DNA of 64,000 bases from Candidatus Limnocylindrales bacterium (GTDB taxonomy: Bacteria; Patescibacteriota; Microgenomatia; Levybacterales; UBA12049), in contig DATLDE010000005.1 of assembly GCA_035526025.1 (NCBI GenBank), positions 125,690-189,689 on the forward strand, written 5' to 3'. Each line of letters opens with the position of its first letter. Positions within the stretch are counted from its first letter, which is position 1. The notes under the pieces were generated by a model that was given only the letters and a program-made list of their open reading frames with translations, ran no database searches and was not told the origin of the DNA. Both the position numbers and the translations under genes were made by a program. This document shows, in pieces, positions 6,803 to 33,005 of the stretch.

Positions 6803-6851
6803 GAGGAATGCCTCTTCTGTCAATCTCCACTCCGAAAGGAGCACATCCTAA

Positions 6852-9143: not shown

Positions 9144-9559
9144 CTATCGCCCGCCACCTCACCTAGACGGTAAAGTTATTATTTAATAGTAAATTAAACA
9201 AATTTCAGTCTCTAGCTTGACTACCTCATCTAGTTCTGAAAAGGTGATTAAAGTATGAAAGAGCAATATGGTTTCTTGATTGATCTATCTGGTATTCAGT
9301 TTAATGAAGATGCGCCAACGTGGATTCAGGCATTTCCGGTGCATTGCCCGCCACGTTTAGTTCAACGGTTGCAGTTGCCTCCCACGCACATCGTATATTT
9401 ATACGAGCAGCTTGATATATAAATTAAAAGTCTTGCATACAGGCTTTATAGTATGTCTTAATTAACCTATGGCAAAATTACTAGTTTCGGGCTCAGATAA
9501 CTGGACTTTGGGAAAAGTAAATCTTGCTACATCTGTTCGGACGTAAGATGTCTATCCGC

Positions 9560-9723
9560 TTGACTTCCTTTAGATATTTATACAATAATGATATTGACAT
9601 GAATAATTCTCTCTCTTTGAGAATTCCTCTATCTCTACTTCTCATCCCGAAAGGAGCACATCCTAAATGGCAAGACTTCCAGTACTAGGTTCAGACGATG
9701 GCACATGGGGTGATATTTACTAA
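9560..9723 (+). pseudogene. Decayed cassette copy B: promoter, (CT)4, RBS and an 18-codon N-terminal remnant (MARLPVLGSDDGTWGDIY*)
   Basis: Sequence parallels copies A and C through TTGACT, 'caataatgatatt', CT tract, 'gaaaggagcacatcctaaATG' and the PGSDDGTWGD codons, then a stop at 9721..9723; runs directly into tatC. Confidence 0.75.
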
Positions 9724-9777
9724 ATTCTTCACATTGCTTAGTTGCTAATTCGTGGGATATACTTAATAAAGAATACT

Positions 9778-10602
9778 ATGACTGCCCAACACACACCGCT
9801 TGAGGAAAAGACATTTGGTGAACATCTCTCAGAACTCCGGACCCGTTTGATGGTATCAGTTTTTTGTGTTGGGTTAGGGGCCACAGTTGCTTACTTTTTC
9901 AATAAAGAAATTCTCGCGTTTCTCGTGCGTCCTCTTGGCGGACCGCTGTATTACACTACGCCTGCCGGCGGATTTGATCTAGTATTTAAAATATCACTTT
10001 TTTCAGGGATATTTATCGCGTCCCCCATCCTTGTGTATCAATTCCTTGCTTTTCTGGAACCGGTCATTCCGCAAAGAACATCCTCATCCTTACGGCAATT
10101 TCTCCTGGCGTCATGGGCGCTACTTATCGCAGGTGCAGCAGTTGCATACTACCTTAGTCTTCCGGCAGCATTGAAACTGCTTAATGAATTTAGTTCAGAT
10201 CAGGTAAAAGCAATCATCTCAACTAAAGATTATTTCTCGTTTGTGATATCTTACCTTGGTGGATTTGCGTTCGTTTTCCAGCTTCCTGTTGTTATGCTGC
10301 TTCTGAATAAAATCACACCGCTTCACCCCAAGAAACTTTCACATTACATCAGACATGTTGTGTTGTTGAGTTTTATAATCGCAGCAATACTTACCCCAAC
10401 ACCTGATCCTGTCAATCAGGCAATTATGGCAGCACCCCTTATCGTTCTCTATCTTTTATCAATTTTCTTCATATGGCTGGTCAACGTATCTAAAAGGCCA
10501 AAAGTAGTTAAACAAAAATTTCTTTTTGTGGATGCAGATCATCCGGTTATTTACAAAGAGAAAATTAAGAGGCACCAAAGATATCTAAAAAGGGGATACT
10601 GA
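9778..10602 (+). CDS. tatC: Twin-arginine translocase subunit TatC
   Basis: 'MTAQHTPLEEKTFGEHLSELRTRLMVSVF...' matches the TatC N-terminal signature (hLxELRxRL), 6 TM segments; ORF-table start 9742 is TTG, ATG at 9778 is more likely. Confidence 0.85.
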   Translation: MTAQHTPLEEKTFGEHLSELRTRLMVSVFCVGLGATVAYFFNKEILAFLVRPLGGPLYYTTPAGGFDLVFKISLFSGIFIASPILVYQFLAFLEPVIPQRTSSSLRQFLLASWALLIAGAAVAYYLSLPAALKLLNEFSSDQVKAIISTKDYFSFVISYLGGFAFVFQLPVVMLLLNKITPLHPKKLSHYIRHVVLLSFIIAAILTPTPDPVNQAIMAAPLIVLYLLSIFFIWLVNVSKRPKVVKQKFLFVDADHPVIYKEKIKRHQRYLKRGY

Positions 10603-11077: not shown

Positions 11078-11104
11078 TAGTAACATAACCCTATAATTTT
11101 CCAC

Positions 11105-11133
11105 TTGACTTTTTTCTAAATTCTATACAATAA
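11105..11133 (+). promoter_or_regulatory. Sigma70-like promoter of cassette copy C (TTGACT ... TACAAT)
   Basis: Conserved with copies A and B. Confidence 0.45.
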
Positions 11134-11161
11134 TGATATTAACAATGAAATTTATCAATTA

Positions 11162-11181
11162 CTCTCTCTCTCTCTCTCTCT
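11162..11181 (+). repeat. (CT)10 dinucleotide tract in 5' leader of cassette copy C
   Basis: 20-nt perfect CT repeat; length differs from copies A and B. Confidence 0.9.
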
Positions 11182-11228
11182 GAGAAACCCTCTATATTTA
11201 CTTCTCATCCTGAAAGGAGCATCTCCTA

Positions 11229-13307
11229 ATGCCTAGACTGCCAGTACCCGGTTCTGATGACGGCACCTGGGGCGATGTACTTAATGACTTCCTCTCGCAA
11301 GAGCATAATGCAGATGGTACACAAAAGGCACTTGCTCAATCAAAAGTTACCAACCTTGTCAGTGACTTGGCAGGCAAGCAAGCGACTATTGCTCCTGGCA
11401 CTTATGCGGTGGCGGCGTCGGCCCTCGGCGGGGTCAGCGTGGAGGCGCATGGCGTCACAGCAGTTACCTCACCCGCCTTCAACACCACCGCCATCAACGC
11501 CGCCATCACTGCTGCCATCGCCGCCGGCACGAAACTTGTCACGTTCGCCCGCTCCTACCACTTCGACGGCACTCTGCTTATCGGCGCCAGTGGCATCCGG
11601 TTCCTGGGTGCCAGCCCAGACACAGCAGTGGCGCTCGGCTACACGGGCACCGGCGTGGCCATCCAGATCGGCACTGACAACGGCAATGCACACGACGCGA
11701 ATGAGTACAACGGGCCATACGGCTTCACCATGGAGAATCTCACCCTATTCACCGTCAGCCCGGCCACGGCGCTGGACAACGGGATGGGCAACTACAAAGA
11801 CGGGACCTACGGGATCAGAGACTGGCGTGGGGGGCACGTAACGCTCAAGCACGTTCGCATCACCGGATTCGACTTCCCGTTCTGGGGGATCCAGAGCGAT
11901 ATCAACTTTTGGTCGGATGTGACCTTCCAGTTCAACCACTCTGGGGTTTACCTCGGCCCTCGCTCTGACCAGCTCACCGCAGACGCCGTCCTGTTTCTCC
12001 AGAACGACCGGGCGCTGGACATCGATTCGGCTTGGCAGGCCAAACTCAGCGGCTGCGTCTTCGTCGGCAACGGCACGGCGGCGACCAACCCTGTTCGCAT
12101 CCGCTCACAGTTCAGCCGCGGCGCTTCCGATGTCACGTTCAACGACCCTTGGTTCGAGCATATAACAATCGGCCCGACCAACCTGGAGGCGTTCATTGAA
12201 GTAGGAGTCGGGGACAGCACCCGCACCAAGGGTATCTCGGTCAGGAATCCCTTGGTGCTTACCGGCACCACCGCCGAGGCTGTCCACGCCAAGCACCTCA
12301 TCAAGATCGACCAGGCTGATCACATTGAAGTGGACATCGCCACCGGCACCTTCCTGACCAGCCTCGACAACATCGTCAAGGTAGTCACCAACACCGGCAC
12401 CAGCCCGCAGGTGTCCTGCCGAATGCCCCATGACCTCACCCTCGCCGCCCCGGCGAAATACCTCAAGACGGGCAGTGTCACCCCGGCGTTCGTGCTGGTC
12501 GATTGGGGCAGTCAAGGCTGGGGACTGTCGGACGGCACCGGCCGGGAGTCCATGCGGATGAAGCCGGGGACCGCCCCCATCCTTGATATCGTGGACCCAC
12601 TGACCGGCTTCAACACCCACCGGATGACGTGGACGACCCAGGACGCCGGGCAGCTCTTCATCGACCTCAACCAAACGACCTCACAGGTTCACATCCGAGA
12701 CGGCATTGGTAGCGGGAATGACCTCTTTCGTGTCCAGCCCTCGACCGGGGCCTACATCCCGGGCGGCGTGGACCCGAACGCTCTCACGACGGGTGAGTCG
12801 ACAATCCGGCGTCGGGATATCGATACCAACGGCATCTCCCAGGGCAGCACGACCCTCCGTGTTGCCTATTTCACCGCAGGGAAAACCGAGACGATCACTC
12901 AGGTTCGGTTTATTTCGGGCGGCACGGCGGCAGGGGCGACCCCGACCATTTGCCGCATCGGCATCTGGACCGCCGACGCGGCCGGGGCACTCCTGTCCCT
13001 GGTGGCGTCCACGACCAATGACACGACCCTGTGGGCAGCCGCAGCGACCGTCTACACCAAAGCACTCACGGCGTCCTTCACCAAAGTGGTCGGCCAGCGC
13101 TACGCCGTGGGTACTCTCGTCGTCTCCGCAGCCGCCACCCCGACCACCGTGGGGACGAACGGTGTCGGCGGGCTGCCCGCTGCTGAGGCCGGTCTGTCGC
13201 CCCGAATGAGTGGGACGGTTGCAGGGCAATCCAACCTTCCCGCCAGCGTGGTCGCTGGCAGCATCTCCGACAACGCAAGCGCCGTCTACGTCGTGCTCTT
13301 GCCGTGA
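11229..13307 (+). CDS. Second large beta-helix (pectate-lyase/tailspike-like) protein with the same low-GC N-terminal module and a different high-GC body
   Basis: 692 aa; N-term 'MPRLPVPGSDDGTWGDVLNDFLSQEHNADGTQKALAQSKVTNLVSDLAGKQATI' matches copy A; then 'AINAAITAAIAAGTKLVTFARSYHFDGTLLIGASGIRFLG' (pectate-lyase-like beta-helix start); body unrelated in detail to copy A; high GC persists about 40 nt past the stop. Confidence 0.7.
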   Translation: MPRLPVPGSDDGTWGDVLNDFLSQEHNADGTQKALAQSKVTNLVSDLAGKQATIAPGTYAVAASALGGVSVEAHGVTAVTSPAFNTTAINAAITAAIAAGTKLVTFARSYHFDGTLLIGASGIRFLGASPDTAVALGYTGTGVAIQIGTDNGNAHDANEYNGPYGFTMENLTLFTVSPATALDNGMGNYKDGTYGIRDWRGGHVTLKHVRITGFDFPFWGIQSDINFWSDVTFQFNHSGVYLGPRSDQLTADAVLFLQNDRALDIDSAWQAKLSGCVFVGNGTAATNPVRIRSQFSRGASDVTFNDPWFEHITIGPTNLEAFIEVGVGDSTRTKGISVRNPLVLTGTTAEAVHAKHLIKIDQADHIEVDIATGTFLTSLDNIVKVVTNTGTSPQVSCRMPHDLTLAAPAKYLKTGSVTPAFVLVDWGSQGWGLSDGTGRESMRMKPGTAPILDIVDPLTGFNTHRMTWTTQDAGQLFIDLNQTTSQVHIRDGIGSGNDLFRVQPSTGAYIPGGVDPNALTTGESTIRRRDIDTNGISQGSTTLRVAYFTAGKTETITQVRFISGGTAAGATPTICRIGIWTADAAGALLSLVASTTNDTTLWAAAATVYTKALTASFTKVVGQRYAVGTLVVSAAATPTTVGTNGVGGLPAAEAGLSPRMSGTVAGQSNLPASVVAGSISDNASAVYVVLLP

Positions 13308-13596: not shown

Positions 13597-16320
13597 ATGC
13601 CAACAAAATACATATCATTTCTTGCAGATCTTCCGGTATATTTAATTTTCCTCTCATGCATAACATTTACTTTGCTCATCGCTTATCTTATAACGCGACA
13701 CATATTGCTAAAAAGGAAACTCAATACCCCACATGTTGTTCTTTCAATTAAACCAATCAAGCAAACACTCCAGAGTTCCTATGCTACAGAGCAGTTATTT
13801 ACCCAACTCCATTCACTCATTAAAGGAAAAACATTCTGGCAAAGATTTATGCATGACAAAACATCAATAAGCGTTGAACTAGTTGCAACCAAAGAAGAGG
13901 GAATCCGCTACCTCATTCGCACAAATAAATCTGATGTTTCAGTTATCCGAAAAGCTATCCTGTCATATTTACCAAGTGTTGAGATAGAGGAGGTAGAAGA
14001 TTACCTGCCGCAATCAATCTCAGCTGTGAACAATTTCCTTAAAACAAATAAAGAAATAAGAGTTGTGATTTTTCGCCTATCAAATCACTTCGCAATTCCA
14101 TTAACAGATCAGAAACAACTTGATGAGCATGATCCGATTGCCTATCTCACAGGAAATATGACAAAACTCGCGCGTGAGGAGCTCGTTTCTTTGCAATTAA
14201 TTATTTCTCCGATGGATAAAGCAAGTAACAGAACTAAAACAAATGAAATAAATAGCTTGCTGTCTCATTTATTTCACAGTAAGGATATTTCCAATGTTAT
14301 TAAACATAACAGATTGCTTTCAATCCTTGTTTTCCCAATCAATGCGATTAGTAAATTAATTTACTTAACTCTTGGATTATTGATTGAAATTGTTGGTTAT
14401 ATAGCTGATATTGCAATGAGTAATAGTAACAACCAACAAAGTCCTCGTGACAATTCACAGGCTAAACTTAAAAAAATCTTTACCCCAACAGTCACTCAGC
14501 AAGTGTTATTCGGTCAAGTACATAACAAGCTACAACAGCCAATGTTTGAAACAAGTATGAGGCTTCTTGTAGCTGGCAATAGCTCAGATGCTGTTAGTGA
14601 GCGTATCAGAGGATTTAGAGCAAGTCTCGCAACATTTGATAATACACAATATCAGGCAATTATTCCAAGGCGATCAATCTCAATTCTACCTAAAAAGATC
14701 AAACAATATATTTTGTTTTTCTCACTATACCAAATTGGCAATAGACTGTTGTCTTTCTCTCACAATATTTTCCTCTCAATAAATGAGCTATCAAGTATCT
14801 ATCATTTGCCTTACACCCAAACAACCAAAACTGAGGATATGGTTAAAAGTAAAAGCAAAGAGCTGCCTGCTCCCCATTCATTTAAAAAAGCAGCAACACA
14901 ATTTGATGTTATAGTTGGTACTAATACATATGGTGGTGAACAGACAAAAGTTGGTTTGCCAGTAAGCAACCGCAAAGAGCATACATACATTGTCGGTAAA
15001 ACAGGAACCGGTAAAACAACGATTATTGAGGGAATGGCTCTACAAGACATAACAAATGGCAAAGGAATAGCTGTCATTGATCCCCATGGAGATTTGATTG
15101 AGCATTTACTAACTCTAATTCCTAAAAACAGACTTAAAGATGTGGTACTTGTTAATCCAGCAGATAAAGATTATCCATTGGGACTGAATATCCTCTCCCC
15201 CGGAACGCATTTTTCTGATGTCGATGAGGAAAACGGATTCATAACAAGAAGTCTTATGGCTGTGTTCATGAAAATTACACCTGATAAACATTGGGGGCAG
15301 AGAATGGAGCATATACTCAGAAACGCAACGCTTACTGCCTTAAAGGCACCTACACCAACACCTGAAACACCATATATTTCCTTGCTTTCTATTCAGAAAC
15401 TTCTAACTGACAGTAATTACCGTAGACGAATTACTCAAACCCTAACTGATCCGGTATTAAAACAGTTCTGGGAAAAAGAATATAGCTCATATGGAAAGTT
15501 TCAGCAGGCTGATGCCGCATCTCCTTTGACAAATAAGCTGGGAGGATTTATGACTGATAAGATGTCAAGAAATATCCTGCTTCAGGAAAAAAGTACAATT
15601 AATGTTTCAGAAATAATGGACCAGGAAAAGATTCTTCTTGTGAATCTATCAAAGGGCAAACTGGGAGAGGAGAGAAGTGCATTCTTTGGCACCTTAATGC
15701 TTTCCCTTATCCAACTGGCTGTATATGCAAGGGCTGAAATACCAGAAAAAGAAAGGCGCGATTTCTTTGTTTACATCGATGAATTCCAGAACTTTGCAAG
15801 CACGCACTTTACCGATCTTTTTTCAGAAGCACGAAAGTATCATGTATATTTCATGCCATCTCACCAAAACATTGCCCAAATTGAAGATCCCAAATTATCA
15901 AAAGTTGTATTAAGTAATAGCGGGAATTTAATAGCTCTTAAGAATGGACCGGATGATGAAAGGATTCTTTTACCTTTTCTTGAGCCTGAAGTAGAAAAAG
16001 GATCAATTGTTAATCTTTCCCCTCACCACTTCTACATGAAAGTAACCAATGAATACTCAGAAGATGCATTCTCGGGTGAAACCATACCGATAACAGAGCA
16101 AGGAAGCAGTAAAACAGCAATGGCAATTGTAGAAAATTCAAGAAGTAATTACGCTACTCCAAAAGCCGTAGCTGAGAAACAATTGGAAAAGTTGTTTTTG
16201 GAAATTAAGAAAGAAGTGAAACCCAAAAAAACGGATGGAGATATACAGCAAACGAAACAAAAACCAGCTGCAAAACAAGCAAAAATTACGAAGAAAAAGA
16301 TCAAAAAACAAGAAATATAA
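13597..16320 (+). CDS. Type IV coupling protein (VirD4/TraG/TraD family)
   Basis: 907 aa; N-terminal TM helices; Walker A 'VGKTGTGKTT'; Walker B-like 'FFVYIDEFQNF'; K-rich C-terminal tail. Confidence 0.8.
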   Translation: MPTKYISFLADLPVYLIFLSCITFTLLIAYLITRHILLKRKLNTPHVVLSIKPIKQTLQSSYATEQLFTQLHSLIKGKTFWQRFMHDKTSISVELVATKEEGIRYLIRTNKSDVSVIRKAILSYLPSVEIEEVEDYLPQSISAVNNFLKTNKEIRVVIFRLSNHFAIPLTDQKQLDEHDPIAYLTGNMTKLAREELVSLQLIISPMDKASNRTKTNEINSLLSHLFHSKDISNVIKHNRLLSILVFPINAISKLIYLTLGLLIEIVGYIADIAMSNSNNQQSPRDNSQAKLKKIFTPTVTQQVLFGQVHNKLQQPMFETSMRLLVAGNSSDAVSERIRGFRASLATFDNTQYQAIIPRRSISILPKKIKQYILFFSLYQIGNRLLSFSHNIFLSINELSSIYHLPYTQTTKTEDMVKSKSKELPAPHSFKKAATQFDVIVGTNTYGGEQTKVGLPVSNRKEHTYIVGKTGTGKTTIIEGMALQDITNGKGIAVIDPHGDLIEHLLTLIPKNRLKDVVLVNPADKDYPLGLNILSPGTHFSDVDEENGFITRSLMAVFMKITPDKHWGQRMEHILRNATLTALKAPTPTPETPYISLLSIQKLLTDSNYRRRITQTLTDPVLKQFWEKEYSSYGKFQQADAASPLTNKLGGFMTDKMSRNILLQEKSTINVSEIMDQEKILLVNLSKGKLGEERSAFFGTLMLSLIQLAVYARAEIPEKERRDFFVYIDEFQNFASTHFTDLFSEARKYHVYFMPSHQNIAQIEDPKLSKVVLSNSGNLIALKNGPDDERILLPFLEPEVEKGSIVNLSPHHFYMKVTNEYSEDAFSGETIPITEQGSSKTAMAIVENSRSNYATPKAVAEKQLEKLFLEIKKEVKPKKTDGDIQQTKQKPAAKQAKITKKKIKKQEI

Positions 16321-17917: not shown

Positions 17918-20749
17918 TCAAATTTGTCCAAAACCGTATTTGCTTTCTCTTTTTTTAAAGGCTTCTTCTCCACCTTCAAGAATATCTTTAATTTTTATAT
18001 TAATAATCGGATTTTCTATGGAACCACTTATGTATCCTTTATTATCATCTTGATCTAATTGAGAAACAATTACTTGTTCAGCGTCAGCATTTACAACAAG
18101 ATTTGCATTATGTGTTGATAATATAATCTGTCTCACTTTTTTGATTCTTTTAATAAGGGGAACAAGCTGATTCATGATAAAGTGATTATCTAAGTTATCC
18201 TCAGGTTGATCAACGATAAATATTTGCTTAACACTAGCTGTTGCTAGATAGATTTTTAGCAATAATGTCCCTCTTTGTCCTACCGACAGTTTTTCTGTAG
18301 GGATTTCTTTTAATCGTGCAATTGCCTTAACGTGAATAAATTCATGCCATTTTGTAAATATGAAGTCAATAAATCTATTTATTCCACCTTCATTAAAATT
18401 CTCTTCTTTAAGGAAACTATTCAAATTATTATTAATCCACAGAGCCAATGAATCGAGTGTTATGTCTTTTATGATACCTTTGTCTTTTCCAGCTATGATC
18501 TCTTTAATATCTTGAGCTGATCTTACTCTTCTCCTATCAACGCAGCTGTTTAGAATGTAGTTACAAAATATTTCTTGCTTAAAATCAATTGCTCCCTCAA
18601 TACTAATATCACTTATAATATTCTTAAATAATTCCTTCTCATCTGTTGAGGAACTGTCCCGAGAGCTAGTAAACTCTATAAACTTCTCATCTATTATATC
18701 CTTGCTCAGTTTAACTTCTTTTATAATCTCAGAGTATAAATCGTTTCTCTCTTCTATCTTTTTGATAAGAATTTTTCTTTTTTCTTCATATGTTACAAGA
18801 TCCCTTGATGCATTATTAATTTCTTTTTGAATCGCCTCTATAGATTGCACCAGAGCAGTTATATCCTCTTTTATACCCAATGTAGAAAGCTTTATCTTTT
18901 TTTCTTCAATGGATTTATTAAGTTGTGTAATCTCTTCCCATACCTTTTTTTGTAAAATTTTAATAGATTTTTCTTGAGTATCAAGTACTATTTCTGGAAT
19001 TAATTCCAGATTTTCCTTGTACAAATCTTTCTGTGCTCTATTTAAGTCTGCTATTTCTTTATTGAGAGTAATAGATTTAACTCTTACAAGCAGATCCTCT
19101 ATATCGCTTGAGAAATCCCTAAGGCGCATCTTTCTGTCAATTTCTTTACTTATTTCTTCTAACAACTTCTTCGTTTCCTCTGATGAGAGTGTTTTCTTCT
19201 GAATTGATTTTCTATCAATATAGTTCCTTAACCATTGTTCAAAAGAAATTTGTTTTTTAAAATCAGGATATTTTTGATGTATATCAATAATTTCTTCTCT
19301 TATTATGTTGACGTCTGCTATTAAATTCCTTGCTACTTCGATTAATTGAGGCTTCTCAATATCTGAAAAATTTAAACTGATTAGCTCGCATACTTTTAAA
19401 GTAAGCTCTTTATCGTCTGTAGCTATCAAACTGAGTTGTTCTTGTCCAATGTACAAAAATGGTAAACTTAAGCTTTCAGAATCATCTAAAGTTTTCCCAA
19501 ACTCTTCTTGATTATTATCTTTATCAATCAATTTTGCCTTCAATGAAAATCCTGGAGAAGGATTTTTTAATTCAACGTTATCTCTATAAAATTCAATTAA
19601 CTTAGGCTTACCATTTTGGTCAGCTTTAGCATGTTCTTCATTTAAAAATGCAACTAAGTCTAAAAAAGCACTCTTTCCGCTTCCCCGGCCTCCAATGATT
19701 GTTACTAGCTCCCTGTTAAGGTAGAATTCTGCATTTGGGACGATAAAATTAACACTACCCTCTAAACTTATTTCATCAATATAAACTTTTTTTCTATCTT
19801 CAAAAGGGGATAGTTTCTGTATCTTAACTCTTTCTCCTGGTTCGTAAATGATTTGCTTTAAACCATCAAAGGTGGTGTCTGCTTTGATCCAACAAAATCT
19901 CATATCACAAGTGTCTGAACTTAAACTACAAGTGTGCCCTCTTTCTCCTCTCCTTGCGCAGGGTAACCCGATTTGCTCCAAGCTATGTGCATCTGAACCG
20001 TGGATGCAGGATTTTAGATTTCCATGTTTTCTGATAATTTCATCTTTATTATCAACGCCATTTCCTAAAAAATACGTAAAATCGTTTGGATTTCCAGAAA
20101 AAATACAGTGAGAAAACCTATAAATTTCTTGTCTTGTAGCGGATAAGCTAGAATGCTGAATCCCTGAGTTGCCATCCCTACTACTATTGGATACTACAAT
20201 TACAGAGTTATCTCTTAGTTCTTTATCTTTGGAAAAAATTTGCTGTAAGTTTGTAAGGTTTGTTTTAAATTGATTGACGCCCGCTTCATATGAAGCTTGC
20301 TCTGACAATGTTTCATCATTTGAATACTTCCTTCCTAGATTAATTAAATTGTCCTTAATACATTTATATGTTTCTCCTTGATATGTAAACTCAAGGCTGG
20401 AAAAAAATTTACTTTCTAAGGTATCGACGATTGAGGGATTAAAAATAATATGTAAATTTATTGGTGTTGACGTATCCGTTACTGGAACAATCCTTAATTC
20501 TACGTTTGGAAGAATCAAATCAATATTGGTTAAGTTACTATTATCTCTAATATATTTATATCCATCTACAGAAAAATAATCAGTTATCCCTACAACTGCA
20601 GTATCAGTTAATGTAGATAATTTTTCTAAGTACTTTTCCCATTTCTCTTCTATGGAAGACCCTTCAAATTGATTGTTGAGCGCAGAAACAGGAGAATGGA
20701 TATGCAAATCCCATTTTCTCCATTCAGATCCGCGTATGTATTTATCCAT
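17918..20749 (-). CDS. PHP-domain phosphoesterase fused to SMC/Rad50-like ABC ATPase with coiled-coil insert
   Basis: 943 aa; N-term 'WDLHIHSPVS...GITDYF...HGSDAHS' gives PHP motifs; 'IIGGRGSGKS' Walker A; a roughly 250-aa K/E-rich coiled coil; 'LSVGQRG' ABC signature; 'IFIVDQPEDNLD' Walker B/D-loop; 'LSTHNANL' H-loop. Confidence 0.7.
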   Translation of the reverse strand: MDKYIRGSEWRKWDLHIHSPVSALNNQFEGSSIEEKWEKYLEKLSTLTDTAVVGITDYFSVDGYKYIRDNSNLTNIDLILPNVELRIVPVTDTSTPINLHIIFNPSIVDTLESKFFSSLEFTYQGETYKCIKDNLINLGRKYSNDETLSEQASYEAGVNQFKTNLTNLQQIFSKDKELRDNSVIVVSNSSRDGNSGIQHSSLSATRQEIYRFSHCIFSGNPNDFTYFLGNGVDNKDEIIRKHGNLKSCIHGSDAHSLEQIGLPCARRGERGHTCSLSSDTCDMRFCWIKADTTFDGLKQIIYEPGERVKIQKLSPFEDRKKVYIDEISLEGSVNFIVPNAEFYLNRELVTIIGGRGSGKSAFLDLVAFLNEEHAKADQNGKPKLIEFYRDNVELKNPSPGFSLKAKLIDKDNNQEEFGKTLDDSESLSLPFLYIGQEQLSLIATDDKELTLKVCELISLNFSDIEKPQLIEVARNLIADVNIIREEIIDIHQKYPDFKKQISFEQWLRNYIDRKSIQKKTLSSEETKKLLEEISKEIDRKMRLRDFSSDIEDLLVRVKSITLNKEIADLNRAQKDLYKENLELIPEIVLDTQEKSIKILQKKVWEEITQLNKSIEEKKIKLSTLGIKEDITALVQSIEAIQKEINNASRDLVTYEEKRKILIKKIEERNDLYSEIIKEVKLSKDIIDEKFIEFTSSRDSSSTDEKELFKNIISDISIEGAIDFKQEIFCNYILNSCVDRRRVRSAQDIKEIIAGKDKGIIKDITLDSLALWINNNLNSFLKEENFNEGGINRFIDFIFTKWHEFIHVKAIARLKEIPTEKLSVGQRGTLLLKIYLATASVKQIFIVDQPEDNLDNHFIMNQLVPLIKRIKKVRQIILSTHNANLVVNADAEQVIVSQLDQDDNKGYISGSIENPIINIKIKDILEGGEEAFKKRESKYGFGQI

Positions 20750-20839: not shown

Positions 20840-21076
20840 GTGATATACTATCCATATATGATTAGCAAACAGGAAGAAAAAAGCAGAAAAGAGTTAGGTG
20901 ATAAGCTAAGAATAGCTCGCGAAAAACTTGATTTTACTCAAGCCGATGTTGCTGAAAAAACGAATATCACAGTGAATTATTATGCAATGATTGAGCGAGG
21001 GGAGGTAAACCCATCCCTTAGTAAGGTAAGAAAATTACTCATTGTTCTTAAAATAAACCCTTCTAAGATATTCTAA
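20840..21076 (+). CDS. XRE-family HTH transcriptional regulator
   Basis: 'DFTQADVAEKTNITVNYYAMIERGEVNPSLSKVRKL' Cro/C1-type HTH; divergent from the PHP-ATPase gene. Confidence 0.7.
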   Translation: MIYYPYMISKQEEKSRKELGDKLRIAREKLDFTQADVAEKTNITVNYYAMIERGEVNPSLSKVRKLLIVLKINPSKIF

Positions 21077-23613: not shown

Positions 23614-23886
23614 AAGTGGATTATAGCAAAGTGGCTAAAAATAACAATTTTAGTAGGTTTTAATAACCTATGGTAGTAAGAGCCGAGGATTGAGTAGCTT
23701 CAGGCTGAATAATACTTTTCCATTGCTGCAATGAACCTAGAATCTGGTTCACCATTCGTCATTATATTCCTCCGGGTAAGAACCCGATGGAGCAGGCAAC
23801 TCTGATTCATTGGGGTCATAGTTAAATAATGAATTCTAAAATAGTATGCAAGCTCTTCTACGTATTTCAGTTATAATTACAATGGA

Positions 23887-24879
23887 ATGATTAAAAATAC
23901 TTATAACAACTCCCGTTGGTTAGAAATTTTAAAGTATGGTAAATATGCTCCAACTCCTCATAACACTCAATGGTATTACCTACATGTAATCAACCAAAAT
24001 AAAGCATTAGTTGGAATAGATAGTTCCATTAGCATACCTTACACTGATCCCGATGATCAGTTTCGATTCACAGGACTTGGTGTTTTTGTAGCTCATCTAG
24101 AATATGCCGCAAAAGCCGCAGGATATTCTGTTCGGTCCACATTTCATGTTAATGATTCCACCTTTCCTGTTGAAGTGCAAATAACTAATACCATAAAACC
24201 TGATCCGTTACTGGCTAAGACTATTTTACAACGACGAACGAGTCGCTTACCCTACCAGAAGAAAAAAATTAGCGACAACGCATTAATAGAGCTCTTAAAG
24301 TTGTCTACAAAGGAGAATTTACTACATATTTCCTCTGACAAATTACTAGTAAGTGCTGTTATCAATCTTAATAACAAAATTCTAATTGATGAATTACGCG
24401 ATAAGGGGCTAGGAGACGAGTTGTCACATTGGATTCGATACACGAACCATGCTCAGGCACAGCATCAAAATGGGTTTACTCCCGACACACTCGCAGTCAG
24501 CGGGTGGAAAATTTGGCTCATCTTGAGATTTAGGTGGGTTGTAAAAATTTCATTTATGCGGCAATGGTTAACAAGACAGTATATTAAACAAAATATCACT
24601 GGCACGGTAGGCTGGATCTACAGTTCTTTCGCTACAAAACAAGATCAATATTACGCAGGCAGATTTATGATGGATCTCTGGATACGTGTGACTGAGTTGG
24701 GATTCTATATGCAGCCTTACGGGTCTATTATTACCAATCTATCCGCTCGAAAACAGTTTTTAAAAGCAGCTGGTCAATCAGAGGCGTATGGTAAAATGGT
24801 TTGGTTAGCTTTTCGTGTTGGAGTTTCTGATGTTCCAGCCGCATCACCACGCAAACCAATTGAGGAGTATTTACGATGA
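23887..24879 (+). CDS. Nitroreductase-family protein (double/extended nitroreductase fold, SagB-like candidate)
   Basis: 330 aa; 'GKYAPTPHNTQWYY' resembles the nitroreductase 'APSxxNxQPW' motif; second 'ILQRRTSRLPY' resembles the nitroreductase 'RRSxRxF' start; stop overlaps the next gene's ATG (ATGA). Confidence 0.45.
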   Translation: MIKNTYNNSRWLEILKYGKYAPTPHNTQWYYLHVINQNKALVGIDSSISIPYTDPDDQFRFTGLGVFVAHLEYAAKAAGYSVRSTFHVNDSTFPVEVQITNTIKPDPLLAKTILQRRTSRLPYQKKKISDNALIELLKLSTKENLLHISSDKLLVSAVINLNNKILIDELRDKGLGDELSHWIRYTNHAQAQHQNGFTPDTLAVSGWKIWLILRFRWVVKISFMRQWLTRQYIKQNITGTVGWIYSSFATKQDQYYAGRFMMDLWIRVTELGFYMQPYGSIITNLSARKQFLKAAGQSEAYGKMVWLAFRVGVSDVPAASPRKPIEEYLR

Positions 24880-26414
24880 AATTATCTGACATTATCTGGT
24901 TACCATTAGTAGTCTTAATTAACATTTTGGAGACATTATTCCTACGGAATGAAAATGTTTACAAGATTATGCTAATAAACCGACTTGAGCCTATTAGCTG
25001 GAATATTTCAAAACAACGAGCGGCAGCTCTTGCCAGAAAAGCATGCCGTCAAGTGCCCGCCTACCGTGACTACTATGAAAAAGCTGGAGTCAAAAACATT
25101 GTTGCTAGCAACTTTAATCAACTGCCCGTAACCGATAAAGAAAGCTTTGTAAAAAAATACGCTATAGCCAATCGTGTATGGAACGGCATAATACCCGACT
25201 ATGGTGTAACAGTTGACGAATCATCTGGCAGTACGGGTAGCCCAACTAACTGGGTTCGTGGCTGGGATGAACGGCAAACAACCAAGGAGCTTCTGCAACT
25301 TTCTTTTCATAGCACCTTTCATAAAGACAAAATTTTTGTTTTTAACGCTTTCGTACTTGGGGCTTGGGCTACTGGTATGATTGTTAGCCAATCTATCGGT
25401 GAAATCTGCATTATGAAATCCACCGGGTCAGACGCCGAGAAAATCTTGAATACCATGAAGTATTTTGGCAAGAATTATCACTACATTATCATGGGGTATC
25501 CACCGTTTCTTAAGAGTCTTATCGATGATAATGAGTTTGACTGGAATGGTTATAATGTTGACTGTATCTATGGCGGTGAAGCTATAACTGAACAGGTTCG
25601 AGACTACTTGGGAAAGACATTTGGTAGAGTTATCGGTAGTTACGGCGCATCAGATCTTGAAATAAATATTGGCTATGAGAATGACTTTACCATTGCCTTA
25701 CGAAGAGCACTCTTAACAGATGAGGCACTGCGCAAGGAATTAGTTAAAGATTTCGGTTCTCTTCCATGCATATTTCAATATAATCCACTAGCATACTATG
25801 TAGAGACTAATGAGAATAACGAGCTTTTATTTACCATAAATCGATCAGTAAATATATCTCCAAAAATCCGATACAACATACACGATATAGGCTATACGCT
25901 TCGCTACAATGCCGTTATTGACGTACTCAAAAAATGCAATCGTATGGATGTCATAGAAACTGCGCGAGCCAATGGTCGTCGACTGGTAAATCTACCAATA
26001 CTGTTTCACTACGGTAGATCGGACATGAGCATTAACTACTTCGGTGCAAAGGTAACACCAGAGGGTATTCGCCAAGCACTGAATGCAATACCTGAGCTGA
26101 GCCCACACCTTGAATCTTTCCAGGCTTTTAATGCCGAAAACGATCGCAAAGATAGTCTCATGGTTGTGTGCGTTGAGCTCACTGCTGGTGTTAAAGTCAA
26201 ATTGATTGACCAGGAAAAAATTGAGAGTAAGTTCCCTGAAGAACTCGGTAAGCTTAACGGTGATTTCTACAAAATGCTGTCAACTGCAAAGAAACATCTA
26301 TACCCAGAGGTGCGTATATATGAACATCAGACTGGACCCTTCGAGGGAGGCCATAAGAAAATCAAACATAGTTATGTGGCAACAGCTATCCAATACGACG
26401 ATATTCCTGTTTAG
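24876..26414 (+). CDS. PaaK/F390-synthetase-like adenylate-forming enzyme (acyl-CoA ligase superfamily)
   Basis: 512 aa; 'QVPAYRDYYEKAGV...QLPVTDKESF' and 'VDESSGSTGSPTNWVRGWDE' match the PaaK N-terminal and AMP-binding 'SSGTTGKP' motifs. Confidence 0.6.
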   Translation: MKLSDIIWLPLVVLINILETLFLRNENVYKIMLINRLEPISWNISKQRAAALARKACRQVPAYRDYYEKAGVKNIVASNFNQLPVTDKESFVKKYAIANRVWNGIIPDYGVTVDESSGSTGSPTNWVRGWDERQTTKELLQLSFHSTFHKDKIFVFNAFVLGAWATGMIVSQSIGEICIMKSTGSDAEKILNTMKYFGKNYHYIIMGYPPFLKSLIDDNEFDWNGYNVDCIYGGEAITEQVRDYLGKTFGRVIGSYGASDLEINIGYENDFTIALRRALLTDEALRKELVKDFGSLPCIFQYNPLAYYVETNENNELLFTINRSVNISPKIRYNIHDIGYTLRYNAVIDVLKKCNRMDVIETARANGRRLVNLPILFHYGRSDMSINYFGAKVTPEGIRQALNAIPELSPHLESFQAFNAENDRKDSLMVVCVELTAGVKVKLIDQEKIESKFPEELGKLNGDFYKMLSTAKKHLYPEVRIYEHQTGPFEGGHKKIKHSYVATAIQYDDIPV

Positions 26415-26703
26415 GTATTCTACTTTTAAAAAAATCTCATATTTATGAAGATTTATTGGGCAAAAAATGTTAAATAAAAATATGCCCCTAGCAAGGTCAA
26501 TAACAGGTTCAGAATAACTGCAAGAAAAATCTTCCATAAAGCTTTAAAAGAATTGCTAAAATTGCGCTTGATATCCAGAGAAATGAAGCTAGTGTAGCAT
26601 TTAGTAAAACATGCTTTTTTGCTATACAAGCTAGAACCTGCTCACGCAGGCAATTCTGAATCATTTGGGGTCACAGCGAAGCTAGATAAACGGATTTCAA
26701 CTA

Positions 26704-27432
26704 TCAATCACTATGCTCACACCGCTGTGGTGGCTCTAATTTAGGAAGCGTTGTCTTGTTATGAACGAGGGCTGCGTTGTTTTTCACATATACGAAATAA
26801 TTATTACTTCCTGAAACCTGAGGATTATATACTGTAATTGGTGTTTCGCTTTGAACTTCCTCGATGCTCTCAATAACTAGTGGGACAATCGCCTCTGCAG
26901 CTACTAATTCATCTCCTGCAGCAAGTTCTTTTGCTTTTTTCCAAATTATGTTTCCAGACTTTCGCACCCCCATAGGATGTTCAGATGTAACTTTTAGTGT
27001 CCGGTTAATAAGATAATACGAATTTACTTTATAACTTCTGCACATCTCTATTTTTCCAGAAACAATTGTATTTGTTTTGATATCAAGACCCATCACCTCA
27101 TCACCTACATCTAGAGCAGAAATTCTCACTTTCCCCTTTGAAGTCCAGACTTGTGTATCACCTGTAAAGCTACTACTCATCCCCATGCCTAAAGCAGAAA
27201 ACACATACTGCAAGCCTACGTATGTTATTGCAGTAATAATGAAAATTACTATTCCTATTTTCATTTTCTTTACCCACATGTTATGAGGAGTATGCCTGAG
27301 TGAAGACAAAATTATACCCAAAATTCCGATAATAATCAGAATTACTGAAACGGTTGTTGAAATAAAAAATAATGAACTAATGATGTTTAGGAAAATACGA
27401 ATTGGTAAATACATATTACTTAGTATAGACAT
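26704..27432 (-). CDS. Membrane-anchored Hint (intein-like/BIL) domain protein
   Basis: 242 aa; 2-3 N-terminal TM helices, then 'SFTGDTQVWTSKG..ISALDVGDEV' (intein block A-like with Ser1), 'TSEHP' (block B T..H) and C-terminal 'NNAALVHN' (block G His-Asn). Confidence 0.55.
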   Translation of the reverse strand: MSILSNMYLPIRIFLNIISSLFFISTTVSVILIIIGILGIILSSLRHTPHNMWVKKMKIGIVIFIITAITYVGLQYVFSALGMGMSSSFTGDTQVWTSKGKVRISALDVGDEVMGLDIKTNTIVSGKIEMCRSYKVNSYYLINRTLKVTSEHPMGVRKSGNIIWKKAKELAAGDELVAAEAIVPLVIESIEEVQSETPITVYNPQVSGSNNYFVYVKNNAALVHNKTTLPKLEPPQRCEHSD

Positions 27433-27661: not shown

Positions 27662-29089
27662 TTACCAGTTATTTTGAGTATCAGGGATGCAGGAAGTTCT
27701 GACATATCCTGAAGAACCAGGAGATGTTAAATTCAAATTTCGAGTTATTGAATTTATATGCATAGCGTTCGTTGTTGCGCATTGTGCGTTGTTTTTGTAT
27801 TCTACTTCAAATACCGCCTTGCCTGCGTTCGTAAATGGCGAGAGTAGTCCGCATTCGTTATATTGATAACACTCCTCATTAACCGCCCAATCATAATAGG
27901 GCTGTAGCGCAACTATCTGGTCCACATCGTTTTTAAGTCCGATTGACAAACCATACGAATGGGCAAGTTGTGCGATCATCTTATTGTAATCTAACTGATT
28001 CTGAGCGGTAAGCGGAAAACCACTAGAGTTGGCATACCCATCCATATTATCTGTATCGACTGAATCAAATCCCTTGGTCTGACACATTTGCATACGACTC
28101 GCCATGAGTGGCTGCAATATATTAATTTGTCGGATATCCAGCCACTTCTCACCTTGCCAGCCGCTCACGATATTACCTTGCACAGAAGTTGGGAAGTTCC
28201 CTGCATCCGGTCGCCAATTTTCCCACGTGCCTGCATCGATATAGCAAATCGCCCTCAATCCTTTGGTATGCAGTGCACTCACGGTTGATGCGCTATTATC
28301 AAACCCGTCTATGTCATACACATGCACATTGGGAATCAAATCCGTTGCAGGATTTAGTGCACTTGCGAGTTGATATTGCCAGTGAAGCGGGGTACTTGCA
28401 CTCGGGCTCCACATTCCCGTAGATACGGGGACAGCTGTTGGTGTCGGTGTAGGAACAAAACTTGTCGGACTTGGCGTGCTAATAATAACAGGTGAGGGTG
28501 TTGGTGTCGGCACTGCAGTACTGCTTGCATCATCTATGACTAGATTATCAAATAGCATATCCCAGCTGAGTGTTGAGGTCACAGTGACAGGTGAACAGTT
28601 CGCAGTCCAGTTGCTTATAAGCGTTCGCGTATTACTAGGTGCGACAGTTATGCTTTTTGTTACCTGCCCTGCACAAGAAATCGTTACCTTTCCTGTGCTT
28701 CCGCCACCGTAGTTGTATGCATCAAGTGAGATAAGCCGTCTAGGCGTTATAAATGTGAATGATGCACTTTTTAAGCGTGTTGCAAATTGAAGATTATTGG
28801 TCTTAAACGTTCCGGACGGGCCATTGGTAATCCAGTTTTGCCCTCCCCAATCAATAAGTCCTAATGGATACTGACTCAAGGTCTGATTTGCACGCTGATC
28901 GTCAAATGTGAGAGTTTGCTGATTTGCTGCAGCGAGCATTCTGAAGTCTTGTTTCTGCTGGACGAGGAATAAAGTGCAGGCGATTCCGAACATAATAAAA
29001 CCCAGCATATATAATTTTGTTCGCGATGAACCTCTGGACGATTTTCGTCCAAGAAACCAAGTTGATTTACTTTTTGATGCCTTCGCCAT
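27662..29089 (-). CDS. Secreted/membrane-anchored glycoside hydrolase family 114-like (endo-alpha-1,4-polygalactosaminidase-like) protein
   Basis: 475 aa; N-terminal TM; PT-rich linker 'PTPTPSPVIISTPSPT'; C-terminal 'VYDIDGFDNSASTVSALHTKGLRAICYIDAGTWENWRPD' resembles GH114 TIM-barrel. Confidence 0.55.
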   Translation of the reverse strand: MAKASKSKSTWFLGRKSSRGSSRTKLYMLGFIMFGIACTLFLVQQKQDFRMLAAANQQTLTFDDQRANQTLSQYPLGLIDWGGQNWITNGPSGTFKTNNLQFATRLKSASFTFITPRRLISLDAYNYGGGSTGKVTISCAGQVTKSITVAPSNTRTLISNWTANCSPVTVTSTLSWDMLFDNLVIDDASSTAVPTPTPSPVIISTPSPTSFVPTPTPTAVPVSTGMWSPSASTPLHWQYQLASALNPATDLIPNVHVYDIDGFDNSASTVSALHTKGLRAICYIDAGTWENWRPDAGNFPTSVQGNIVSGWQGEKWLDIRQINILQPLMASRMQMCQTKGFDSVDTDNMDGYANSSGFPLTAQNQLDYNKMIAQLAHSYGLSIGLKNDVDQIVALQPYYDWAVNEECYQYNECGLLSPFTNAGKAVFEVEYKNNAQCATTNAMHINSITRNLNLTSPGSSGYVRTSCIPDTQNNW

Positions 29090-29219
29090 ATAAATATATA
29101 ATATTTATATATGGGATTAAATGTCAAGAACTAAAACTAGTAACTACATTATCTCAATGCAAATATTAAAATAAACTAAAGGTTTCATCCTTATGTTCTC
29201 AAGTATGTAAGGGTGTTTG

Positions 29220-29522
29220 TTATTCCGATTGGAATGTTTTTATGAAGATTGCGAGTTTTTTACCGTATGGAGAAAGTTTATGTTCCCGAAATTTTCCTCG
29301 ATAATTTTTATCAATTAGTCCTGCGACATGTAGTCTTCGCGTATGTTCACCTATTGTTTTCTCATTGGCTTTAATCTTCTCAACTATACCTTCAAGTGTT
29401 ATTCCTGGTTGGTCATGAATAAGAATAAGTATCTGAATACGATAATGATTGGAGATACCCTTAAAATGCCTTTCCATCTGCTTTGCAGTCTTTACAGAAG
29501 CCATAAAATTATTATTCCACAA
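29220..29522 (-). CDS. ArsR/SmtB-family wHTH transcriptional regulator
   Basis: 100 aa; 'HYRIQILILIHDQPGITLEGIVEKIKANEKTIGEHTRRLHVAGLI' HTH pattern; non-ATG start in ORF table, ATG (MASV) a few codons in. Confidence 0.55.
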   Translation of the reverse strand: MWNNNFMASVKTAKQMERHFKGISNHYRIQILILIHDQPGITLEGIVEKIKANEKTIGEHTRRLHVAGLIDKNYRGKFREHKLSPYGKKLAIFIKTFQSE

Positions 29523-29524
29523 TA

Positions 29525-29870
29525 CCCTTACATTCTCAAGTATTTAAGGGTGATTTAACAGATGAGCTACAACATACACAACATCCTCATATTCTCGGGT
29601 ATTTAAGGGTGTTGAGTGGTGAATAGAGGCATGGTAAATCTAAATAAAATGCTCGCTTGGTTTAAACTAAAATTGAATGATCCGCTGCAACCCCTACCCG
29701 AAGTCTAATTAAAATAATCAAAACATCCTTACATTCTCAAGTATTTAAGGGTATTGTGCGACAATAATTGGAATAATTGGTTTGAAAACAATAAGTATAT
29801 TTTTTACTTAATTTGAACGAAAGTTGAATGACTCGCTGAAAGCCTTTCCAGAAATCTAAAAATGATGTAA
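29525..29870. repeat. Intergenic tandem repeats: three copies of a 27-nt palindromic motif CCTTACATTCTCAAGTATTTAAGGGTG (fourth copy near 29189..29215) plus a duplicated 40-nt motif TTGAATGA.CGCTG.AA.CC....GAA.TCTAA
   Basis: Motif copies at about 29525, 29585, 29727 and 29189; each has CCCTTA...TAAGGG inverted arms; second motif at about 29668..29712 and 29826..29868; coordinates +/-2 nt. Confidence 0.7.
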
Positions 29871-31490: not shown

Positions 31491-33005
31491 CTATTCATAC
31501 TGCAGATGAGATGCAAAAAGCTCTACTTCCTTCCGATCTATAACAGCATCAAGATTTTTAATACTTTCGTAATCAATATATTTTGCATCGTCAAGCAATT
31601 TCTTTAAGTCCGCAGGCAATTCCCATTTTGAGCTAAAAAGCTCTAAATTTTCACCGGTGGCATTTCTACATAGTTTTTCTTCAAAAAGAAAATAAATACT
31701 GTGTTTTATAGCAATTCTTTGTAACCATATTTCCAAAAGCCCAGAATTTGGTAATAAATTAATTTTTCGGAGTAACTTGTCTAGAACTTCCTTCTTACTC
31801 TCATGTGCCCTTTTATCAATAGCCTTACTAATTAATACAGCAACTATCGGAAAAGATCTTGGATTTTCATATGCAATATTAATAAGAATACTTATGATTT
31901 CAATATAATTATTTCGAAGTAAGGTAACTCTAACAGTATCATTTAGCCTCATTAATCTAATATTTACAGCACCACAATTAGGGTGGCTTGTCCCTATTGA
32001 ATATATAGTTAAAAGTTCATTCCGGAGTGTTTTTTTTGTGATCGTATTTGATAATGGCAACTTAAGCATGGCCAATTTATCTGGTTTAATTGAATCAGTA
32101 ATAATACTATCACTTTTTTTAGTTTTTGCGGTGTTTAGTGCCATACCAAGCTTAGCAAGTACCTCACTTAAGGACTTCATGATTAATTCTCCGTCTTTAG
32201 GATTTCGGACAAAAATTCTATAATCATCACGATAACGAAGAATTCTATATGAATCTTTACTAAGTAACTTTATTTTTTTAGAAAGTTCATGATCAGCGTA
32301 AGATAAAACTATCTCTGCAATAAAATCCATTAACACACTTCCTTGGGGTATTCCATTTGTTTGGCCATTGGACATTGCTTGAAGATGATGGTCAATTTTA
32401 TTGCCTAAAAGTTGATTATAATTTCGCTTCTCTTTTGAAATAGACTTTTCATGTAACGCCCATGCTATAGAGTGAGTATAAACAGAACCATAACAATTAA
32501 CAATGTCAGTTTGAAATAAATATTCAAAATCTAATGCTAAACGTATAGATTCTTTTTCAATCAAATCAAACCATTCATTCACCTGAGTGGCTTGTTGTTT
32601 CTTATTGGTATCGCCAATAACAGGCAAGCTTATACAGCTTATCGAATTATTGAATGAAAGACTTTTAAATCTGCTACAAATTATTTCCCAAGAGTCTCTA
32701 GCAGTGATAAGATTAACAAGCGAAACATATAGTACTGGATTAATTAATTCGTATTTTCTCCATGCATAATTACCATCTTTATTTCCGTAGATAATATGAT
32801 TTATATTCTCAGCGCTTTTAGCAGTCATAAGATTTTTTTCTGGGATGGGCCCTCCTCGCAATTTTTTAGAAAGTACCAACAAAGTCTTTTCAAATTCAAA
32901 GTATGGAGGCAGGTCCATACTAAAATATTTTTCTTGATTAAGGAAGAATTTATTAGCTTTTCTGCAATCTAATTTCAGAATGTTACTCCTCATAGTATCT
33001 ACCAC
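31491..33005 (-). CDS. Stand-alone reverse transcriptase (defence-associated/Abi-like RT candidate)
   Basis: 504 aa; motif A 'TDIVNCYGSV', motif B 'NGIPQGSVLMDFIAEIVL', motif C 'RYRDDYRIF' (YxDD); roughly 200-aa alpha-helical C-terminal extension; no maturase/En domain. Confidence 0.7.
   Translation of the reverse strand: MVDTMRSNILKLDCRKANKFFLNQEKYFSMDLPPYFEFEKTLLVLSKKLRGGPIPEKNLMTAKSAENINHIIYGNKDGNYAWRKYELINPVLYVSLVNLITARDSWEIICSRFKSLSFNNSISCISLPVIGDTNKKQQATQVNEWFDLIEKESIRLALDFEYLFQTDIVNCYGSVYTHSIAWALHEKSISKEKRNYNQLLGNKIDHHLQAMSNGQTNGIPQGSVLMDFIAEIVLSYADHELSKKIKLLSKDSYRILRYRDDYRIFVRNPKDGELIMKSLSEVLAKLGMALNTAKTKKSDSIITDSIKPDKLAMLKLPLSNTITKKTLRNELLTIYSIGTSHPNCGAVNIRLMRLNDTVRVTLLRNNYIEIISILINIAYENPRSFPIVAVLISKAIDKRAHESKKEVLDKLLRKINLLPNSGLLEIWLQRIAIKHSIYFLFEEKLCRNATGENLELFSSKWELPADLKKLLDDAKYIDYESIKNLDAVIDRKEVELFASHLQYE

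Follow-up and report, generated by a model that had tools for sequence, protein, structure and literature searches.

A 64,000-nucleotide stretch of contig DATLDE010000005.1 (positions 125,690 to 189,689, hereafter the window), taken from a metagenome-assembled genome (MAG) that is labelled 'Candidatus Limnocylindrales bacterium' at NCBI, carries two overlapping genes that are referred to here as A and B. Gene A (23887..24879) is an open reading frame (ORF) of 330 residues for a predicted flavoprotein of the Acg/flavin-dependent oxidase (FDO) subgroup, with the nitroreductase fold arranged as a pseudo-dimer in a single chain. Gene B (24876..26414) is an ORF of 512 residues for a divergent adenylate-forming enzyme of the ANL superfamily with a PaaK-type fold. 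Both genes, and all features of the pair given below, lie on the forward strand. Together they form a module of two translationally coupled genes, passed on as a unit both by descent and by horizontal transfer. The coupling shows in the letters themselves: the stop codon of A (TGA, 24877-24879) and the start codon of B (ATG, 24876-24878) are interlaced in an ATGA overlap of four nucleotides (24876..24879), and the ribosome-binding site of gene B, GAGGAG (24862..24867), also read from the sequence, lies in the last codons of A, 8 nucleotides ahead of the ATG. The junction reads GAGGAGTATTTACGATGAAA. The start codons of both genes are backed by full-length alignment to equally long homologues. 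An earlier note, made from the letters of the window only, had described genes of these lengths and this overlap, and its coordinates were borne out.

To collect relatives of B, each GTDB species was represented by one genome and the genomes were scanned with a pattern. The scan found 186 relatives, and the best 80 were examined together with their surroundings. Most of these loci (55 of 80) are from Actinomycetota, such as Curtobacterium, Promicromonospora, Arthrobacter, Gaiellaceae and others; 12 are from Patescibacteria (Saccharibacteria, Gottesmanbacteria, Peribacteria), eight from Alphaproteobacteria (Mesorhizobium, Devosia, Sphingomonas, Methylocystis) and two from Bacteroidota. A cyanobacterium, an unclassified genome and a member of the Gemmatimonadota contribute one locus each; in the last, B was seen and the contig breaks off before the position of A. 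The hosts are mostly soil or plant bacteria. When all ORFs in the loci were searched with a hidden Markov model (HMM), 78 of the 80 proved to have A immediately ahead of B in the same orientation, a count that takes in one locus with only the C-terminus of A at a contig edge (L014) and one, from Arthrobacter sp. OVS8, in which A is split by a frameshift (L041, 4936-6014). The two loci outside this count are L032, which is cut at a contig edge, and L013, an alphaproteobacterial MAG in which B (5920-7503) stands alone, flanked by pepN and proB and with no A within 6 kb. Even A proteins with no more than about 30% identity to that of the window are still paired with B; one relative of 27% identity was found without B. 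A four-base NTGA overlap occurs at the junction in 55 of 81 non-redundant loci, and nearly all remaining junctions fall between -20 and +7 nucleotides. The co-expression that the earlier note deduced from the overlap is thus a real coupling that is kept across phyla, and the neighbourhood conservation that it had proposed as a check extends over at least five phyla, with pairs in Actinomycetota, Alphaproteobacteria, Patescibacteria, Bacteroidota and a cyanobacterium. No natural fusion of A and B was present among the best 150 A-family matches, where no representative exceeded 570 residues and the 570-residue case was a frameshift read-through. In the searchable literature, no paper was found in which a PaaK-like enzyme accompanies a protein of the FDO/Acg type.

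The two genes also share their history. Over 76 loci, the pairwise identities of A and those of B are correlated with r = 0.98, a value of the kind that shared phylogeny inflates, and B is the slower-evolving partner (mean identity of 55% versus 45% for A). The nearest neighbours are the same for A and B, also across phyla. When three pairs (L009, L034 and that of the window) were compared with L010-L012, L031 and L008, the Patescibacteria pair of L009 was nearest to Alphaproteobacteria (57% identity for A, 60% for B), the Saccharimonadales pair of L034 was nearest to Actinomycetota, and the window pair was nearest to a pair from Gaiellaceae. This fits a transfer of A and B between phyla as a whole module, possibly between epibionts and their hosts. 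The GC content of the pair is 39-40%, which is close to the window mean (37.5%, with stretches of 31-32%), and the low-GC outliers are the upstream genes; a recent transfer argued from base composition was therefore not convincing.

The product of gene A is a single-chain, pseudo-dimeric nitroreductase fold of the Acg/FDO subgroup. The NCBIfam model of the Acg family (NF047509) matched it over the full length with E = 2.9e-33 and 115.7 bits, and seven further A homologues, three of the Bacteroidota type among them, scored 117-173 bits. Because these scores stay below the cut-off of 199 bits, the clade is placed as a predicted sister of Acg proper and not as Acg itself. Weaker NCBIfam matches fell on the ThiF-nitroreductase fusions Rv1355c and PRK14851, in their nitroreductase part (2e-7 for the Rv1355c model). 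A profile built from 18 homologues matched the Acg protein of M. smegmatis (MsAcg, 2YMV) in the PDB at 1.4e-13, and the same structure was the best PDB match over the whole length (TM-score 0.76) when the AlphaFold2 (AF2) model of A (predicted local distance difference test (pLDDT) of 90) was searched with Foldseek. Classic dimeric nitroreductases span just about half of this model (TMq 0.31-0.41); the C-terminal domain of FbiB was also among the fold matches. The profile and structure searches agree with the extended, two-lobed nitroreductase-fold protein that had been proposed from the letters. The Pfam model for nitroreductases (PF00881) gave only 14.4 bits (E = 0.044) for the window protein, under its gathering score of 23.5, but nine of the 10 Bacteroidota-type homologues scanned pass it (26.1-44.1 bits), with P0190 just short at 21.2. 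Since these homologues pass and the other HMM and fold evidence is strong, the nitroreductase reading, which the earlier note had made dependent on HMM support, is not refuted. The protein is predicted to be a flavoprotein of the flavin mononucleotide (FMN) type.

Two signatures like those of nitroreductase N-termini had been noticed in A, and both are near-invariant in the family. The first hallmark motif, APTPHNTQW (residues 21-29; 23947..23973), aligns to APSLHNTQPW of MsAcg. The second, RRTSRLPY (residues 116-123; 24232..24255), is of the flavin-phosphate-binding type, and positions 1-25 of PF00881 align there. Within 76 homologues, H25, N26 and Q28 of the first motif and R116 and R120 of the second are invariant. 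Of a putative FMN site, the conserved motifs RRTSR, HNTQ and R310-x-G312 are seen, together with R322. The two signatures are the hallmarks of both halves of one pseudo-dimeric Acg-type fold. No internal duplication could be detected by sequence (hhalign gave a probability of 1% for the two halves), so duplication at the sequence level was dropped as their origin; the pseudo-dimer is evident at the fold level only.

The likeness of A to SagB-type dehydrogenases, drawn in the earlier note, does not hold; the matches to the Acg model and to 2YMV place it in the Acg/FDO subgroup, and no YcaO partner is present. This bears on the possibility that the pair modifies a ribosomally synthesised and post-translationally modified peptide (RiPP), with B activating a peptide carboxylate and a SagB-like A dehydrogenating the product. 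The two-lobed fold is superficially like that of the extended SagB/ThcOx enzymes, and adenylating enzymes are found in some peptide pathways. However, the NCBIfam matches of A are confined to the Acg, PRK14851 and Rv1355c models with none to a SagB-type model, neither a YcaO protein nor another RiPP enzyme accompanies the pair, and its neighbours are unrelated housekeeping genes. The small ORFs within 700 nucleotides of the pair in the 80 loci, where a precursor peptide had been suggested, include none that is conserved beyond the genus level. A RiPP system was therefore rejected as extremely improbable, and the peptide activation that the earlier note had offered as one option is left without support.

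No Pfam family scored above threshold for the product of gene B. The PaaK equivalog models matched weakly, with 29.8 bits for TIGR02155 (cut-off 646) and 35.6 bits for NF041878 (cut-off 700), at E of 4e-9, and homologues of B gave 22-30 bits on the same models. The family profile retrieved PaaK2 (2Y4O, 9e-9) and BT_0428 (4R1L, 8e-8) from the PDB. A Foldseek search with the AF2 model (pLDDT 81) returned BT_0428, PaaK1/2 and 2-hydroxyisobutyryl-CoA (coenzyme A) ligase (HCL), with E = 1e-15 to 4e-20 (about 1e-19 to 1e-20 for the top matches of the PaaK fold) and TM-scores of about 0.57-0.66. The adenylating enzyme of the PaaK/F390-synthetase type that had been named in the earlier note was thus recovered at the fold level and by weak HMM matches. 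In keeping with PaaK, BT_0428 and 2-hydroxyisobutyryl-CoA ligase, B has the two-domain ANL fold, and it shares with PaaK an N-terminal VPAYR-type motif, the P-loop and the GRSD hinge. It differs from PaaK and these structural relatives in its identity of only 15-18% and in HMM scores that lie 20-fold under the PaaK cut-offs. It is also about 70-80 residues longer than PaaK, with an extra N-terminal helical segment of about 45 residues, and is not part of a paa operon.

The core motifs of the superfamily can be followed along the protein. The P-loop (core motif A3) is DESSGSTGSP (residues 114-123; 25215..25244), which aligns to SSGTTGKPT of PaaK and in which D114, E115, S116, S117, G118 and G121 are invariant in 76 homologues. 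SYGASDLE (residues 255-262; 25638..25661), which we take to be motif A5 from what is known of the ANL superfamily, is invariant in the same set. Motif A7, with the Asp that binds the ATP ribose, is YNIHD (residues 333-337; 25872..25886; Y333, N334 and D337 invariant), and the A8 hinge is GRSD (residues 380-383; 26013..26024; G380, R381 and D383 invariant), aligning to GRSDD of PaaK. The invariant K497 (26364..26366) is a candidate for the catalytic lysine of motif A10, an assignment made in a part of the model where local confidence is low. Because the core motifs are invariant in the family and intact in the window protein, B is apparently a functional adenylate-forming enzyme from the PaaK-fold branch, though not PaaK itself. 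Its conservation is unusually high, with about 40% identity between phyla and many invariant charged residues across the 76 homologues.

A further possibility is a detoxification or catabolic pair. The two enzymes would share one class of xenobiotic as their target, B as a CoA ligase for aryl or alkyl acids and A as a nitro, quinone or ene reductase that depends on NAD(P)H. Homologues of B carry the JGI annotation 'phenylacetate-CoA ligase', the nearest folds of B are PaaK, BT_0428 and 2-hydroxyisobutyryl-CoA ligase, classic nitroreductases reduce xenobiotics, and soil or plant bacteria make up most of the hosts. Yet the 30-36 bits of B are far from the PaaK cut-offs of 646-700, and neither paa genes nor other downstream catabolic genes were seen in the context of any locus. 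A PaaK-type catabolic operon, against which the earlier note had set its own reading, was rejected on both counts, and that reading was not refuted by the loci. It also speaks against a catabolic role that the pair occurs in Patescibacteria, the metabolism of which is minimal, that strict translational coupling would be unusual for two independent detoxification enzymes, and that A is of the Acg/FDO type, the characterised members of this subgroup being O2-dependent oxidases (PMC10404671). Taken together, a catabolic pair is considered unlikely, though it deserves more weight than the other alternatives.

Apart from A and B themselves, nothing in the neighbourhood recurs. An all-against-all clustering of neighbouring ORFs over the 80 loci returned just A, B, shadow ORFs and genus-level synteny, and the Pfam contexts vary from locus to locus (GH10, EamA, FtsH-like, SspB, arginine deiminase, tRNA-synthetase-like, YchF, M42 peptidase, RelA/SpoT and PhoX). 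The window operon and the related loci hold no ThiF, and no N-acyltransferase of the OxzA/TyzA/TrzA kind is conserved and linked to the pair in the loci. In this sense, the module is self-contained. Its presence in ultra-small Patescibacteria genomes, with apparent transfer to or from Actinomycetota or Alphaproteobacteria, suggests a function that is useful alone and needs no surrounding pathway.

Given its place in a variable island of the contig, the pair could also be an anti-phage defence system or another conflict module. Its distribution is patchy and shaped by horizontal transfer, a direct repeat flanks it in the window, and its neighbours there are a Ppl-like PHP-ATPase (PADLOC, 1.3e-22), an XRE regulator, a pretoxin-HINT (PT-HINT) protein and a reverse transcriptase. 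However, PADLOC has no family that matches A or B at E <= 0.01, no homologue of the pair occurs in 50,697 phage records, and the neighbours in other genomes are ordinary housekeeping genes. The plasmid collection yielded two matches only, both on replicons of more than 1 Mb, and plasmid carriage was dropped as well. A defence role is regarded as very improbable.

What the pair does is best approached through the only characterised enzymes of the FDO subgroup, namely OxzB, TyzC and TrzS, which desaturate N-acyl amino acids in concert with a partner, ATP-dependent and of the ThiF type, by which the carboxylate is adenylated and the oxazolone ring closed (PMC10404671, PMC12856293). For TrzS, it was found that cyclisation has to precede desaturation (PMC10404671, PMC12856293). 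The module shares with these systems ATP-dependent carboxylate activation and an Acg-like flavoenzyme, and because of these shared functions it is proposed, tentatively and as a possibility somewhat short of an even chance, that A and B first activate and then oxidise a carboxylate-bearing small molecule that is already in the cell. In a first step, B would use ATP to form an acyl-adenylate from the carboxylate of one of the cell's own metabolites. This adenylate would then be resolved by B itself, either through ring closure or through transfer to an amine, thiol or hydroxyl nucleophile. Ring closure that follows adenylation is within the reach of ANL enzymes, the beta-lactone synthetases of the OleC type being an example. 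Finally, the flavin of A would dehydrogenate the activated product, probably at the position acidified by activation and probably with O2 as the electron acceptor. A non-homologous ANL enzyme would thereby take the role of ThiF, and no dedicated acyltransferase would supply the substrate. The earlier note had spoken of activation and oxidation chemistry on a small molecule or a peptide; for a small molecule, this remains the best reading.

The closest characterised logic is that of the oxazolone synthetases, namely OxzB of Pseudoalteromonas rubra, TyzB with TyzC, and TrzS/Rv1355c of Mycobacterium tuberculosis. In all of these, a monomeric Acg-like flavoenzyme of the FDO subgroup is genetically joined, by fusion or as a neighbour, to an enzyme that uses ATP to adenylate a carboxylate (PMC10404671, PMC12856293), and B next to A is predicted to be such an enzyme. 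Activation or cyclisation and flavin desaturation take place on one small molecule in the oxazolone systems, and the same is proposed for A and B. The module differs in that the ATP-using partner is a PaaK-fold ANL enzyme and not of the ThiF/E1 type, no N-acyltransferase is linked to the pair, and A lies nearer the branch of Acg and Rv3131 than the FDO-A branch that is linked to ThiF. Acg, Rv3131 and Rv3127 of the M. tuberculosis DosR regulon, with MsAcg as the structural representative, resemble A in their length of about 330 residues, the single-chain pseudo-dimeric fold and the hallmark motifs, and they give the best HMM match. The window protein differs from that family in its 116 bits against the cut-off of 199, and is placed in a sister clade. 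To our knowledge, no Acg gene is paired with an adenylating enzyme.

Several points weigh against the proposed activation and oxidation. No acyltransferase partner is conserved, unlike in every characterised oxazolone system. A scores nearer to the Acg/Rv3131-type proteins than to the ThiF-linked FDO-A enzymes. The conservation of B and its invariant charged residues could mean that its substrate is large or polar, for example a protein or a cofactor. Moreover, A and B may be in different compartments in the Bacteroidota. Textbook signals for twin-arginine translocation (Tat) were recognised in eleven Bacteroidota-type A homologues (P0173, P0177, P0181, P0188, P0190, P0196, P0198, P0207, P0212, P0218 and P0240), with motifs such as NRRNFIK, SRRTFLK or QRRSFLK followed by a hydrophobic stretch. 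At the two inspected loci with a clear twin-arginine motif (A at L050:4863-5972 and L087:6001-7128), A is immediately followed by a B without a signal peptide, and a third Bacteroidota locus (L076), with an RK variant of the twin-arginine motif, has kept B too. The window, actinobacterial, alphaproteobacterial and Patescibacteria versions of A have no signal peptide. A TatA gene near the Tat-signal homologue of L087 is a coincidence, as it is absent from L050 and L076. The signals complicate a simple model in which A and B form a complex in the cytoplasm. ATP is not available outside the cytoplasm, which leaves three options in the Tat lineages: the product of B crosses the membrane, B hitch-hikes with A, or B acts before export. 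For a B that rides out with A, there is no obvious purpose.

The last of these options leads to an alternative in which the task of B is to tailor or mature A, or the flavin or deazaflavin that A binds. It would do so in the cytoplasm and, where A is exported, before Tat export. The near-obligate one-to-one coupling of A and B without a third gene would suit such a role, as would the absence of a substrate-supplying gene from the conserved neighbourhood and the many invariant charged residues of B. The Bacteroidota A proteins with Tat signals still adjoin B, and Tat exports folded proteins that already carry their cofactor. There are also two precedents for a ligase with a nitroreductase fold that acts on a flavin. 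F390 synthetase of methanogens belongs to the PaaK family and nucleotidylates F420, a deazaflavin, and 'CoF synthetase' is the name of homologues at NCBI; the likeness to F390 synthetase rests on this family-level naming, which counts against the alternative. FbiB of F420 biosynthesis, found here as a structural match of A, combines a ligase with a domain for FMN and F420 that has the nitroreductase fold, although its ligase domain is of the CofE type and not ANL. The present data give no sign of F420 production by the hosts of the pair. It also counts against maturation that A lacks a signal peptide in most lineages including that of the window, and that one genome has B with no adjacent A. 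A maturation role in this broad sense appears rather improbable, less so than a defence role and slightly more so than a catabolic pair. The more specific version, in which B tailors the flavin bound to A, or A itself, by ATP-dependent adenylylation much as F390 synthetase acts on F420, is marginally less probable again. If this version were true, the result would be a holoenzyme with a modified flavin that is exported through Tat in some lineages (Bacteroidota), and hence a new flavin cofactor or route of flavoprotein maturation and, for the first time, a way into the biochemistry of the mycobacterial dormancy proteins of the Acg type.

An FDO-subgroup enzyme next to an ATP-dependent activator is an arrangement already known; what is new is the combination of an FDO/Acg-type flavoprotein with an activator of the non-homologous ANL kind. 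A sister clade of Acg has hereby been defined that is almost always tied to this different activating enzyme, and its wide distribution suggests that adenylation followed by flavin oxidation is a recurrent biochemical solution that has been assembled independently. Acg-type proteins include the dormancy-regulon proteins of M. tuberculosis, and the pair could offer a handle on their chemistry. Such a compact two-gene module could also reveal a new small molecule or a cofactor modification.

In the window, the module is bracketed by an imperfect direct repeat of 37 nucleotides. The upstream copy (23779..23815) ends 71 nucleotides ahead of the ATG of A and is probably what the earlier note called repeat element b, for which it had given a similar position. 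The downstream copy (26633..26669) is identical to it at 29 of 37 positions and lies 219 nucleotides past the stop of B, so that the two copies bracket exactly genes A and B. Two matches to the 20-nucleotide core of the repeat with at most three mismatches would be expected 0.02 times by chance in the window. The repeat may mark the boundary of a cassette; a dispersed element and an attachment site were considered as well. No further copies were present in 89 other loci, the six metagenome matches to the core all have unrelated flanks, and no analogous flanking repeats were found in four related loci. Neither copy folds convincingly better than shuffled sequence.

The pair sits in a variable region of the window, and this gene context is not common to the other loci. 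Upstream, a gene for a protein like the coupling proteins of type IV secretion systems (13597-16320, forward strand; 907 residues) has TrwB/TraG/HerA-type domains. It is followed on the reverse strand by a gene for a 943-residue protein (17918-20749) with a PHP-like start at the N-terminus and a C-terminal SMC/AAA_21 ATPase; this is the protein that matches the PADLOC model for Ppl, and it has weaker PADLOC matches to PDC-M49A, HEC-01A and GajA. An XRE-family helix-turn-helix gene (20840-21076) comes next. The next gene after the pair, on the reverse strand, is for a membrane-anchored pretoxin-HINT protein (26704-27432), and beyond it are genes for a 475-residue protein of the GH114 family (endo-alpha-1,4-polygalactosaminidase) with a Pro/Thr-rich linker (27662-29089) and a 504-residue reverse-transcriptase (RVT_1) protein (31491-33005), both on the reverse strand. 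Together with the coupling-protein gene, these genes suggest that a mobile or accessory island has integrated here. A motif of about 47 nucleotides with the core CATCCTTACATTCTCAAGTATTTAAGGGTG occurs in four copies within 29172-29756, around and upstream of a small MarR-like gene (29220-29522); the copies precede a DUF2779 gene and may be operator sites.

Further upstream in the window, three ORFs (6852-9143, 9742-10602 and 11229-13307) have near-identical upstream regions (6720-6901, 9555-9716 and 11091-11278, respectively), with a promoter-like TTGACT...ATAATGATATT, a CT-rich leader and an AGGAG site in common, and the first codons, MPRLPIPGSDDGTWGD..., are common to them as well. The bodies of these ORFs have a GC content of about 50% against a background of about 35%, and one of them gave a weak match to CBM_4_9. 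They look like paralogous large surface or secreted proteins with a common expression cassette.

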